Assembly: GCF_056712565.1 (NCBI RefSeq)
Contig: NZ_CM160072.1
Strand: one strand, 5' to 3'
Length of the DNA: 64,000 nucleotides
Shown in pieces: positions 42,247 through 47,192 of this stretch (positions are counted from its first letter, which is position 1; every line of letters begins with the position of its first letter). The position numbers were made by a program, and so were the translations under genes. The notes under the pieces are model-generated. The model was not told where the DNA came from and did not search any database. It saw only the letters and a list, made by a program, of their open reading frames with translations.

Positions 42247-44493
42247 CTATAACCCCCCGCGAATCAGCCCGCCCATGCCGCGACGCTCCATAAAGGCAGC
42301 AACCTGATGGCGAACTTCGGTCGCCAGTTGCGCTTCCAGACTACGCTGCGCAAGATTTTCTGCTTCAGCAAAATCAATGCGCCGCAGCAGGTATTTTACG
42401 CGCGCTACAGAACGTCCGTTCATAGACAGATGGCGATACCCAAGCCCAATGAGGATTGCCACGCACATGGGATCGCCCGCCATTTCACCGCACAAACGGA
42501 GATCGATTCCATGTATTTCCGCTTCCCGGGCGATCATCGCCAGAGCTCGTAACATTGCAGGATGAAGACTGTCATAAATGTTCGCCACCCGGGTATTGTT
42601 GCGATCAACGGCCAGGATGTATTGAGTCAGATCGTTGGTGCCAACAGAGATGAAATCGACCCGCTTTGCCAGATGCGGCAGCATAAATACCATTGACGGC
42701 ACTTCCAGCATGATGCCGATACGTGGTTTGGGAATTTCGTAACCGATCATCTCCTCGACTTCACGTCCGGCACGTTCAATCAGGCGGCGTGCTTCGTCAA
42801 CTTCATCGAGGCTTGTGACCATCGGCAACAGAATATTCAGGTTGCCCGTAGCGGCATTAGCACGCAGCATCGCCCGCACCTGGATCAAGAAGATCTCCGG
42901 CTGATCGAGCGTAATGCGAATCCCACGCCAACCCAGGCATGGATTCTCTTCGCTAATCGGCATGTAAGGCAGCTGCTTATCTGCTCCGACATCCAGCGTA
43001 CGCAAGGTGACGGGTTTATCATTAAACATTTGCAGCATCCCCTGATACTGCGCCACCTGTTCTTCTTCCGACGGAAAACCACTTTGCAGCATGAATGGGA
43101 TTTCAGTGCGATAAAGTCCTATGCCATCAATACGGCTGCCCAGTTTTTCTTCATGTTCCGGGCTTAAACCGGCATTGAGCATGACTTTAATGCGTTCGCC
43201 GCTTTTTAACTGGGCGGGTAAATTGACGTCATCTTCCGCCAGACGGCTAAGCTCGATCTCTTCACTAATTAGCCGCTGATATTCTTGCAGCAGTACCGGT
43301 TCCGGATCGACCAGCAATTCACCGCGATAACCATCGACGATCAGCGTCCGACGATGCAGTACCGAAGGCTGAATATCCGCGCCCATCACGGTAGGTATCC
43401 CCAGCGCACGTACCATGATCGCAGCATGGGAGTTGGCAGCGCCATCGCGCACGACAACACCGACTAAGCGATCCTGGGGCAGCTCAGCAAGCGTTGTCGC
43501 TGACAGTTCATCTGCCACCAGAATGAAACGTTCCGGCCAGGCGTTCGGCCCTTGATTAGCGTCATCAAGATGAAACAGCAATCGCTGACCCAGCGCACGT
43601 AAATCGCCAGCCCGCTCTTTGAGATAGTTATCGCTTAGCGCGGCAAACTGTTCGGCAAATTTTTCAATGACCGTTTTTACCGCCCACTCTGCCACCGAGC
43701 CTTTATCAACCTCGGCAAACAATTCGCGACGCAGCCGGGTATCCGAAAGCAGGTGTGAGTAAAGATCGAAAATAGCCGCCGTTTCTTTTTGTGCACCGGC
43801 AGCAAAGCGTTTGCTATAGCGGCGAAACTCGTTAGCCGCCTCTTCCAACGCCCCGGTCAGTCGTTCGCGTTCCAGAGCCGGATCCAGCGTTGATGCCTGA
43901 TACACCTGTTCCATTAAAGGTAACGTGGCATCCTGCCAGCCTTCGGCAATCGCCACACCAGGTGCTGCCGGTAATGCACGGATTCGCGTCTGGCGATATT
44001 GCCCAAACAAGGCAGTCAACTGCGACTGAGAAAGAATAGCTGCCATCTGGGTGGCAAGCGTCACCAGGAAGGATTCTTCACTTTCGTCATACTGGCGCAA
44101 CTCTCGTTGCTGTACCACCAGTACACCAAGCAACTGGCGACGTTGAATAATTGGTACGCCTAAAAACGCGCGGAAACGTTCTTCTTTTACGGAGGGGATG
44201 TATTTGAAGCTGGGGTGCTTTTGCGCATCTGCAAGGTTTATCGGTTCCGCCAGCCTGCCAACCAGGCCGACGATCCCTTCATCAAACGCGAGCGTTACAG
44301 TGCGACCGCGTGGTTTTTTCAGTCCCCGGGTCGCCATCAGGTAGTAACAACGTCGATCATGATCGGCCAGGTAGACCGAACAGACCTCGGTATCCATCGC
44401 AAGACAGATGTCGGTAACCAGAATATTTAACGCCTCATTCAGGCGTGGTGCGCTGGCTACCTTTTCGACTATTTCGCGCAGGCGAGTGAGCAT
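42247..44493 (-). CDS. ptsP: Nitrogen PTS enzyme I (EI-Ntr), GAF plus PEP-utilising domains
   Basis: 748 aa. Co-oriented and adjacent to rppH. Confidence 0.95.
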   Translation of the reverse strand: MLTRLREIVEKVASAPRLNEALNILVTDICLAMDTEVCSVYLADHDRRCYYLMATRGLKKPRGRTVTLAFDEGIVGLVGRLAEPINLADAQKHPSFKYIPSVKEERFRAFLGVPIIQRRQLLGVLVVQQRELRQYDESEESFLVTLATQMAAILSQSQLTALFGQYRQTRIRALPAAPGVAIAEGWQDATLPLMEQVYQASTLDPALERERLTGALEEAANEFRRYSKRFAAGAQKETAAIFDLYSHLLSDTRLRRELFAEVDKGSVAEWAVKTVIEKFAEQFAALSDNYLKERAGDLRALGQRLLFHLDDANQGPNAWPERFILVADELSATTLAELPQDRLVGVVVRDGAANSHAAIMVRALGIPTVMGADIQPSVLHRRTLIVDGYRGELLVDPEPVLLQEYQRLISEEIELSRLAEDDVNLPAQLKSGERIKVMLNAGLSPEHEEKLGSRIDGIGLYRTEIPFMLQSGFPSEEEQVAQYQGMLQMFNDKPVTLRTLDVGADKQLPYMPISEENPCLGWRGIRITLDQPEIFLIQVRAMLRANAATGNLNILLPMVTSLDEVDEARRLIERAGREVEEMIGYEIPKPRIGIMLEVPSMVFMLPHLAKRVDFISVGTNDLTQYILAVDRNNTRVANIYDSLHPAMLRALAMIAREAEIHGIDLRLCGEMAGDPMCVAILIGLGYRHLSMNGRSVARVKYLLRRIDFAEAENLAQRSLEAQLATEVRHQVAAFMERRGMGGLIRGGL

Positions 44494-44505
44494 AATTGGC
44501 GTGAC

Positions 44506-45036
44506 TTAACCTCTTTTACGTCGATAAGCAGATGCGTTTTGTGGTTTTGGCGTATTTTCCTGCAGTGACATCACCACACTCGCGAACTCTTTCATTACCC
44601 TACGGTAGACATCACGTTTAAATGACACCACCTGTCTGACTGGATACCAGTAACTTACCCATCGCCAGCCGTCAAACTCTGGTGTACTGCTGGTTTGCAT
44701 ATTGATTTCTGCATCGCCGCTCACCAGCTGCAAGAGAAACCATTTTTGTTTTTGGCCGATACAAACCGGCTTCGTGTCCCAACGCACCAAACGTTTCGGT
44801 AATTTGTAGCGCAACCAGTTACGCGTTGAAGCAAGGATTCGAACGTCTTTGCGGCTTAATCCTACTTCTTCAAACAATTCACGGTACATCGCCTGCTCTG
44901 CGGATTCTCCGGGGTTGATTCCGCCTTGCGGAAATTGCCAGGAGTGCTGACCAAATCGCCGGGCCCACATTACCTGCCCCTGGCGATTACAAATCACGAT
45001 ACCTACGTTTGGGCGGTAGCCATCGTCATCAATCAC
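44506..45036 (-). CDS. rppH: RNA pyrophosphohydrolase (Nudix)
   Basis: Nudix box [22 protein letters not shown]; 176 aa. Confidence 0.95.
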
Positions 45037-45179
45037 CGGACTACCTCAAAATAAAGCTTTATATACGAATGATTGTTTCATACTCCAGGAAGACGGTAAA
45101 CCACTCTCTGCAGGGCATTACACACTAATAACAATTGAATAACTCACAGTTATGTGCAGAGTTATAAACAGAGGAAGGG

Positions 45180-45540
45180 GTGGATAGCCGTTTTTATTCA
45201 CCTTTTCTGTGGATAGAGTTGTGAAGAACTACGGAATTACTACGGGAAAACCCGGAGCATTCTGAATAAGACAGATATAGAGATTTTAAAATATTCATTA
45301 TCAGTCAATGCATTACATGTGATTTGAGTAATAAAAAAGAGTAATTCGTGACCCAGGTCACACCTCTCATTTACGTGTTGGCGAAAGATCAACCAATGCC
45401 GTATTTATCCACAGAATGTGCCACTAAGTTAAGCACTGAACCACTAAAAACTGGAGTTTCGTCGCACGTCAAGGCTGTAAATGGAAACAGTAGTGGAGGT
45501 TTTTCACAGTTATCCCAGCTTTCTGTGGATAACATGGTGT
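45180..45540. promoter_or_regulatory. DARS2-like DnaA-reactivating sequence (DnaA-box cluster in the rppH-mutH intergenic region)
   Basis: Exact TTATCCACA at 45405-45413; exact reverse-orientation box tgtggataa at 45524-45532; near-consensus ctgtggata at 45207-45215. Matches the E. coli position of DARS2 between ygdP(rppH) and mutH. Confidence 0.6.
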
Positions 45541-45720
45541 AAGATCCTGTTTATTTTCAGTGACCAGATTTGGAAAACCCGTTGCAGTGTTGCGCAACTC
45601 GTTTACCGGCAACCTAAAAAGCAATATAAATCAGAGAATTGAACAACGCATGTGGAAAAAGTTACACTGCGAATATTCAGCACATAATTGCTGTTTGTTT
45701 TTTAACCAAGGTATCATGAC

Positions 45721-46410
45721 ATGTCCCAACCTCGCCCACTGCTCTCTCCTCCCGAAACTGAAGAACAATTGTTAGCGCAAGCACAACAACTTTCTGGTTA
45801 TACATTGGGAGAACTGGCGGCACTTGCCGGGCTGGTTACGCCGGAGAATTTAAAACGCGATAAGGGCTGGATTGGCGTGTTACTGGAGATCTGGCTAGGT
45901 GCCAGCGCAGGGAGTAAACCTGAGCAAGATTTTGCTGCTCTGGGCGTGGAACTTAAAACTATCCCTGTGGATAGTCTTGGTCGTCCACTGGAAACAACAT
46001 TCGTTTGTGTTGCCCCGTTAACGGGCAATAGCGGGGTGACCTGGGAAACCAGCCACGTGCGCCACAAGCTCAAACGCGTGCTGTGGATACCGGTTGAAGG
46101 CGAGCGCAGCATCCCGCTGGCAAAGCGTCGCGTAGGATCACCGTTGCTGTGGAGCCCGAATGAAGAGGAAGACCGGCAGCTACGCGAAGACTGGGAAGAA
46201 TTAATGGATATGATTGTTCTCGGTCAGATTGAGCGGATCACCGCTCGTCACGGGGAATATTTACAGATACGACCGAAAGCAGCGAATGCGAAAGCGCTGA
46301 CCGAAGCTATTGGTGCCCGGGGCGAACGGATTCTGACGCTGCCGCGCGGATTTTATTTGAAGAAGAATTTCACCAGTGCGCTACTGGCCCGTCATTTTCT
46401 GATCCAGTAG
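45721..46410 (+). CDS. mutH: DNA mismatch repair endonuclease MutH
   Basis: 229 aa; [33 protein letters not shown]. Confidence 0.95.
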
Positions 46411-46478
46411 CCATCGCTTTGACCTGCCGCTTTCCGGGCATATAATTACCGCTTCATTTTTTTGGCAGGGCTTTTTAG

Positions 46479-47192
46479 ATGTTATTTGCATGGATAACCG
46501 ATCCTAACGCCTGGCTTGCGCTCGGTACACTGACGCTGCTGGAGATCGTTCTTGGGATCGACAATATTATTTTCCTTTCTCTGGTGGTGGCAAAGCTTCC
46601 CACAGCACAACGTGCTCATGCGCGCCGTCTGGGGTTGGCGGGAGCCATGGTCATGCGTCTGGCGCTGCTGGCATCCATCGCCTGGGTTACGCGCCTGACG
46701 AATCCGCTTTTTACAATATTCAGTCAGGAAATTTCCGCCCGTGATTTGATCCTGCTTCTGGGTGGCTTGTTCCTTATCTGGAAAGCCAGCAAGGAAATCC
46801 ACGAATCCATCGAAGGTGAAGAAGAAGGGCTGAAAACACGCGTTTCATCATTCCTCGGCGCTATCGTGCAGATTATGCTGCTGGATATTATCTTCAGCCT
46901 CGACTCGGTGATTACCGCTGTGGGTCTGTCAGATCACCTGTTTATTATGATGGCTGCCGTGGTGATTGCCGTAGGCGTGATGATGTTCGCCGCGCGCTCG
47001 ATTGGTGATTTTGTCGAGCGCCATCCTTCGGTAAAAATGCTGGCGCTCTCTTTCCTGATTCTGGTGGGCTTTACCCTGATTCTGGAAAGTTTCGACATCC
47101 ACGTACCGAAAGGTTACATCTACTTCGCGATGTTCTTCTCTATTGCGGTTGAAAGCCTCAACCTGATTCGCAACAAAAAGAATCCGCTCTGA
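46479..47192 (+). CDS. ygdQ: TerC-family inner-membrane protein
   Basis: 237 aa polytopic membrane protein. Gene order. Confidence 0.9.

Follow-up and report, generated by a model that had tools for sequence, protein, structure and literature searches.

DARS2 of Escherichia coli is a non-coding chromosomal site that regenerates ATP-DnaA from ADP-DnaA. In vivo, it is the chief source of regenerated ATP-DnaA and helps to time replication in fast-growing E. coli. The K-12 element (NC_000913.3, ~2969112–2969566) has been shown to free ADP from ADP-DnaA and to raise ATP-DnaA; the Δ21 and subFBS2-3 mutations abolish its activity, and DnaA boxes V and VI are both dispensable for over-initiation from a multicopy plasmid (PMC4245941). 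Box V was subsequently found to anchor ATP-DnaA oligomers that evict Fis, a negative feedback; with this box mutated, Fis binding no longer oscillates over the cell cycle and initiation is deregulated (PMC8682772). Strengthening the core boxes of DARS2 has been published to cause excess and untimely initiation. Loss of DARS2 lowers fitness in culture and in mouse gut colonization (PMC4585315).

Two other sites of E. coli invite comparison. DARS1, between bioD and uvrB in K-12 (core at NC_000913.3 813107–813141), has the ADP-release mechanism published for DARS2, in which DnaA binds boxes I and II head-to-head; unlike DARS2, it has no need for IHF or Fis, DARS2 adding to the shared core the IHF sites (IBS), the Fis sites (FBS), and boxes IV to VI. 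datA resembles DARS2 in being a non-coding DnaA-box cluster with an essential IHF site and cell-cycle-timed IHF binding, but it promotes ATP hydrolysis on DnaA, the opposite outcome; it also lacks the head-to-head box I/II pair and the Fis requirement and lies at a different place on the chromosome.

DARS2 in the rppH–mutH gap

We analyzed a 64-kb stretch of DNA (the window), which is part of an E. coli chromosome with the gene order lgt–ptsP–rppH–gap–mutH–ygdQ–ygdR–tas, followed by lplT; the RefSeq annotations of K-12 MG1655 and strain FDAARGOS_536 have the same order. The gap (45037–45720, 684 bp, 38.7% G+C) is flanked on the left by rppH (44506–45036, − strand) and on the right by mutH (45721–46410, + strand), both identified from their open reading frames and the RefSeq annotation, and thus corresponds to the rppH(ygdP)–mutH intergenic region in which DARS2 is located; a recent ChIP-seq study describes the site as DARS2 “upstream of mutH” (PMC11317965). 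The gap sequence shows 100% identity with that of FDAARGOS_536. Aligned to the K-12 region, it is identical at 674 of 684 positions (98.5%), with 10 substitutions and no indels, and it was matched in 5424 of 5426 complete E. coli genomes, every match having at least 95% identity. Because the gap is orthologous to that of K-12, and because the published DARS2 primers and elements map onto the window, we regard it as almost certain that this gap is the E. coli DARS2 locus. The initial annotation, which had noticed a DnaA-box cluster at the DARS2 position in a gap of roughly 680 bp, was thus correct, although the element that it found was already known and intensively characterized: the flanking genes are those of K-12, the primers for the 455-bp element match exactly, and the similarity to K-12 extends across the entire gap and includes the IHF and Fis sites rather than being limited to isolated DnaA boxes. 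An intact DARS2 is expected here and brings no new biology; the practical value of the finding lies in annotation. A scan of positions 44000–47000 against Rfam (E ≤ 1) returned no RNA family and thus gave no support for a small RNA or riboswitch in the gap.

The positions of individual elements were obtained by mapping the oligonucleotides of Kasho et al. 2014 (PMC4245941, Suppl. Table S1) onto the window, and the recombineering arms used by Frimodt-Møller et al. 2015 to construct ΔDARS2 (PMC4585315) independently bracket the same core. Full-length DARS2 occupies 45171–45625 (+, 455 bp), with exact primer matches at 45171–45189 (+) and 45607–45625 (−). The minimal element, which is sufficient for stimulating initiation (ΔRight, plasmid pOA67), occupies 45171–45403 (+). 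The 35-bp ΔCore interval, bracketed by primers MutH-14 and MutH-15 (45194–45228), contains three imperfect DnaA boxes, each with one mismatch: box I (TTATTCACC, compared to TTATNCACA; 45194–45202, +), which was located by the consensus scan and is the same as in K-12; box II (CTATCCACA; 45208–45216, −), head-to-head with box I across a 5-bp spacer, TTTTC; and box III (TTCTTCACA; 45220–45228, −), head-to-tail with box II across a 3-bp spacer, AGT. Box order, orientation, and the 5-bp and 3-bp spacers are those of the DARS1 core, with which the DARS2 core of the window shares 24 of 35 positions; the DARS1 boxes are stronger, box II being a perfect consensus and box I being TTATCCACT. Box IV (TTATTCAGA; 45261–45269, −), the interval replaced by Ksh-30/Ksh-31, is reported to be dispensable.

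To the right of box IV, the 29-bp IBS1-2 block of the published translocation mutants is matched exactly at 45287–45315. A consensus scan resolves this block into IBS1 (TAAAATATTCATT, one mismatch to TAANNNNTTGATW; 45287–45299, +) and IBS2 (TAATGCATTGACT; 45303–45315, −), which are 3 bp apart, as published, and are the sole matches to the IHF consensus (≤1 mismatch) in the entire gap. A PciI site, ACATGT (45315–45320), adjoins IBS2, also as published. The non-essential Fis site FBS1 is a perfect GNNYANNNNNTRNNC at 45339–45353, identified by the consensus scan; oligonucleotide FIS-1U maps around it (45331–45361) with one mismatch, which lies outside the FBS1 15-mer. The essential 21-mer AAAGATCAACCAATGCCGTAT, which carries FBS2-3, lies at 45384–45404 between the Δ21 primers MutH-24/MutH-25 and is identical to that of K-12; the block replaced in the FBS2-3 substitution is 45380–45400, and a Fis-consensus 15-mer with one mismatch (45387–45401) falls within the 21-mer. 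Measured between centers, the IBS block is 90 bp from the core and 89 bp from FBS2-3 and is therefore about equidistant from the two. Box V, an exact TTATCCACA (45405–45413, +; interval replaced by Ksh-32/Ksh-33), directly flanks FBS2-3. Farther to the right are box VI, likewise an exact TTATCCACA (45524–45532, −; interval replaced by Ksh-34/Ksh-35), and the region of the non-essential Fis site FBS6 (45573–45603), to which FIS-4U maps with one mismatch at its last-but-one base, 45602. Boxes I to VI, the IBS1-2 13-mers, the FBS2-3 21-mer, and all spacings are identical between the window and K-12, and the search for IHF and Fis sites thus placed IBS1-2 at the published positions together with an unchanged essential Fis site.

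By the mechanism published for DARS2, three ADP-DnaA molecules would occupy the weak core boxes I to III (45194–45228), with DnaA on boxes I and II arranged head-to-head and the box III protomer stabilizing the arrangement head-to-tail. IHF bound at IBS1-2 (45287–45315), halfway from the core to the Fis sites, would bend the DNA sharply, helped by negative supercoiling, and the bend would fold Fis on FBS2-3 (45380–45404) back to the core, where it would touch DnaA. ADP would then be released, and apo-DnaA would take up ATP again, ahead of every initiation round. Abundant ATP-DnaA would nucleate at the perfect box V (45405–45413), oligomerize across FBS2-3, and evict Fis, turning the site off. 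Since its core and essential sites match those of K-12 at every position, we infer that the element in the window would release ADP from ADP-DnaA and raise cellular ATP-DnaA, and would work in this strain as it does in K-12.

The density of DnaA boxes in the gap exceeds chance. Exact TTATCCACA occurs twice in the 64-kb window, and both copies, boxes V and VI in opposite orientation, are inside the gap; the near-consensus boxes of the gap, each with one mismatch, are 45208–45216 (−, CTATCCACA), which is core box II, and 45651–45659 (−, TTTTCCACA). Four of the six exact matches of the window to the relaxed consensus TTWTNCACA fall in the gap, and eight matches with at most one mismatch lie within the 455-bp DARS2 span; four exact matches per 455 bp were reached in none of 300 block shuffles. 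The paired perfect boxes and the near-consensus boxes were both present as initially described, and the perfect ones are indeed DARS2 boxes. The correction concerns the catalytic core, which consists of imperfect boxes I to III and had not been singled out: a scan for perfect boxes finds V and VI and overlooks the deliberately weak core 180 bp upstream. Three further candidates were set aside. An upstream GTGGATAGC (45180–45188) beside box I is absent from the named boxes and is 25% conserved across genera; the relaxed-consensus boxes at 45500 (+, TTTTTCACA) and 45651 (−, TTTTCCACA) are lost in the cross-genus alignment and are probably incidental.

Binding data for K-12 are available. DnaA ChIP-seq assigned three peaks to DARS2, at 2969124, 2969306, and 2969501, which convert to window positions 45183, 45365, and 45560 (offset, 2,923,941); coverage was 78 at the core, 199 near box V, and 213 near box VI, and the core II–III pair is listed as a “double DnaA box” (PMC11317965). 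Table 1 of that paper is labeled NC_000913.2, whereas its DARS2 peaks fit only in NC_000913.3 numbering, in which box I starts at 2969135.

Variation in E. coli and conservation across genera

The substitutions that distinguish the gap from K-12 (45271, 45273, 45282, 45321, 45326, 45333, 45376, 45602, 45679, and 45706) are all in spacers, in oligonucleotide flanks, or outside the 455-bp element, and none of the 10 hits boxes I to VI, the IBS1-2 consensus 13-mers, or the 21-mer. Three of them, 45282, 45321, and 45326, are within the ~34-bp IHF-dimer footprint region, outside the consensus 13-mers, and may have a quantitative effect on IHF affinity. A 90-bp core segment is at least 99% identical in 5258 of 5424 E. 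coli genomes. The 133-bp IBS–FBS segment of the window reaches that identity in 445 of 5419 genomes (~8%), and the IBS–FBS spacer of the window is therefore a minority haplotype.

Exceptions to an intact DARS2 were also encountered. Two of the 5426 complete E. coli genomes gave no match to the DARS2 sequence, and one copy was reported on a plasmid record. In E. coli NZ_CP084026.1 (locus L124, 2692–3900), the genome of a laboratory conjugation strain, an IS4-family ISVsa5 transposase has inserted into DARS2 with the core on one side and the Fis sites on the other; the insertion is in or beside the IHF-site region, and the match to the window restarts at gap position 265. Judging from this arrangement, the core is expected to be cut off from FBS2-3, and DARS2 to be inactive, in that genome. 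In the evolved strains PB12 and PB13, DARS2 is lost with a 10.3-kb deletion that extends from ptsP to galR, and the papers describing them are silent on this loss (PMC4666226).

To follow the element beyond E. coli, species-representative genomes were searched with the triad pattern TTATNCAC-N6-TGTGGATA-N4-TGTG, for which ~2 chance matches are expected. At least 120 loci were found and sorted by tblastn with the flanking proteins. Among the matches listed, 5 lie between rppH and mutH (in Enterobacter, Serratia, Yersinia, Photorhabdus, and Pantoea), 12 lie upstream of uvrB, the DARS1 position, and 103 lie elsewhere. The five rppH–mutH gaps (L071, L072, L095, L109, and L023), together with that of the window, made up a six-genus comparison. 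Since the search pattern fixed part of the core, conservation at the fixed positions arises by construction, and the independent evidence comes from unfixed positions and from elements outside the core.

Outside the core, boxes V and VI are 100% conserved in the six genera and the FBS2-3 block is ~71% conserved, compared with 30–45% for spacers and 39% for box IV. Box V lies exactly 211 bp from box I in each of the six, and box VI lies 330 bp from it (329 in Yersinia), although the spacers between boxes I and VI are only ~40% identical and contain compensating indels. Fixed distances across divergent spacers imply a strict length or phasing constraint. Identity across genera at the IHF sites is 40–62%; IHF sites are degenerate, which makes such a comparison uninformative, and scans for the consensus and for AT-richness were used instead. 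An IHF consensus with at most one mismatch occurs at the homologous position in E. coli and Yersinia only, the other genera having matches with at most two mismatches and AT-richness. All six genera share an AT-rich peak at the midpoint; the 30-bp window with the highest A+T content always falls between +82 and +133. Weak boxes are found in the DARS2-position cores of all six genera (TTATTCAC[C/T], with box II ending in G or T), in contrast to the TTATCCAC and TGTGGATAA of DARS1-position cores. This weakness fits the excess and untimely initiation reported for DARS2 with strengthened core boxes. Testable leads on parts of DARS2 come from the constant distances of boxes V (211 bp) and VI (330 bp) from box I, from the persistence of weak core boxes in all six genera, and from the conserved box VI triad described below.

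Two other features recurred in these alignments. The whole gap contains two GATC sites, one in the essential Fis 21-mer (45387–45390) and the other to the right of box VI (45543–45546); they lie at +193 and at +349 (348 in Yersinia) from box I, each is kept in five of the six genera, and Dam methylation or SeqA could be involved there. The block GTCAAGGCTGTAAAT (45468–45482), in the “dispensable” right half, is near-invariant in the six genera, with one change in Pantoea; it matched none of the DnaA, IHF, and Fis consensus sequences and gave no convincing promoter reading.

Alternative readings of the right half and the box VI triad

RefSeq annotates a 48-amino-acid ORF, ygdT (45389–45535, − strand), in K-12 and in FDAARGOS_536, and this ORF sits over regulatory DNA: its codons 2 to 4 are box VI, and its 3′ end overlies box V and the 21-mer. 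One could propose that the right half (45414–45560) is conserved as YgdT coding sequence and that the DnaA boxes within it are incidental. In favor are the annotation of ygdT, found in K-12 and virtually every one of the complete E. coli genomes listed, and the interval between boxes V and VI, which is ~60% conserved and thus above other spacers. The reading frame, however, does not hold in other genera. The ATG is replaced in four of the five (CTG in Enterobacter, TAT in Serratia and Yersinia, CAG in Pantoea), the frame stops after 11 codons in Enterobacter, 17 in Serratia, and 9 in Photorhabdus, and the conservation takes the form of discrete DNA blocks between divergent stretches. The YgdT protein matched no Pfam family. 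A literature search on ygdT found no expression evidence, E. coli papers giving it as hypothetical only; most matches were to a polymerase “YGDT” motif or were misspellings of YdgT, and the latter also appears to account for a “YgdT” presented as an H-NS paralogue. Since the start codon and frame are broken in other genera, the conservation at ygdT would be better explained by constraint at the DNA level. Protein coding is a highly improbable account of the right half, and ygdT is probably not a conserved coding gene. The initial view that the ORF peptides of the gap are probably not genes runs counter to RefSeq and is, given the cross-genus losses, the better supported of the two.

The box cluster might also be read mainly as a transcriptional operator for divergent rppH and mutH promoters, comparable to DnaA at uvrB beside DARS1. 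DnaA is a known transcription factor, the ChIP-seq study places the site upstream of mutH (PMC11317965), and the box at 45651–45659 (−) adjoins the sole promoter-like match of the gap (45661–45688, +), plausibly that of mutH. Against this, the 45651 box is not kept across genera, the mutH-proximal 95 bp is ~44% conserved, and the conserved boxes sit 190–530 bp upstream of mutH. Neither the one promoter-like match (shuffle mean, 2.2) nor the two terminator-like matches of the gap exceed the counts in shuffles, and transcription across DARS2 is very low and, where it passes through the element, destroys activity (PMC5010248). We consider a primarily operator function quite unlikely; such a role would at most be additional to DARS2 rather than an alternative to it. 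A passive titration sink, resembling part of datA and having no link to nucleotide exchange, could be envisaged for boxes V and VI in particular. Both are exact, high-affinity boxes that account for the strongest ChIP-seq signals of the locus (199 and 213, versus 78 at the core), and over-initiation from a multicopy plasmid requires neither. Yet box V has a demonstrated role, its mutation ending the oscillation of Fis binding and deregulating initiation (PMC8682772), and its position, exactly +211 bp from box I, is the same in every one of the six genera, which a simple sink would not need. This explanation is unlikely for the pair; box VI on its own may act in this way.

We favor the reading of the gap as DARS2. 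The right half holds one further structure. A core-like triad surrounds box VI at 45510–45544: TTATCCCAG, 5 bp, TGTGGATAA (box VI), 3 bp, and GGTGTAAGA. No other segment of the window, the core itself apart, matches the core as well; the triad is identical at 23 of 35 positions to the DARS2 core and at 25 of 35 to the DARS1 core. In the six genera, the triad starts at +316 bp from box I (+315 in Yersinia) and keeps the 5-bp spacing, and the sequence TTATCC[C/A]A, 5 bp, GGTGTAA[G/A]ATCCTGTT is common to all of them (45510–45555). The triad is close to the strongest of the three DARS2 DnaA ChIP-seq peaks; the 2024 ChIP-seq paper remarked only on a pair formed by box VI and “CTTACACCA” (PMC11317965), and a literature search found no paper on DnaA box VI together with DARS2. 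It is possible, if on balance doubtful, that the “dispensable” right half contains a previously undescribed second functional DnaA-assembly unit, which could be a regulatory or an exchange module. Box V may serve as a precedent by analogy: it was regarded as dispensable in 2014, and its feedback role was assigned in 2021.

Core-like triads at other loci

The interest that remains lies in this conserved right half and in the broad distribution of core-like triads. Near-perfect DARS-core-like triads of the form TTATCCACA-N5-TGTGGATAA-N3-TGTG were found adjacent to priA at 24 loci among the matches listed (L004, L015–L017, L028, L030, L032, L033, L040, L041, L044, L046, L049, L051, L052, L063, L066, L082, L085, L086, L092, L105, L115, and L120), in Betaproteobacteria, in Xanthomonadales-type bacteria, and in other Gammaproteobacteria; the identity of the neighbor was confirmed by the Pfam domains PriA_3primeBD, PriA_C, and PriA Zn-ribbon. 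In Pseudomonas/Stutzerimonas, a near-invariant triad, TTATCCACAnAAATTGTGGATAACCTTGTGAACAG, is present at 16 loci among the matches listed (L006, L008, L011, L018, L021, L024, L025, L038, L042, L053, L065, L074, L077, L084, L097, and L098), where it adjoins genes for a DUF1232 protein and an XRE-type HTH protein and neither uvrB nor mutH. Legionella nagasakiensis (L056–L062) has at least eight copies of TTATCCACAAAATCTGTGGATAA…CTGTG over several contigs of one genome, which look like a dispersed repeat with paired DnaA boxes.
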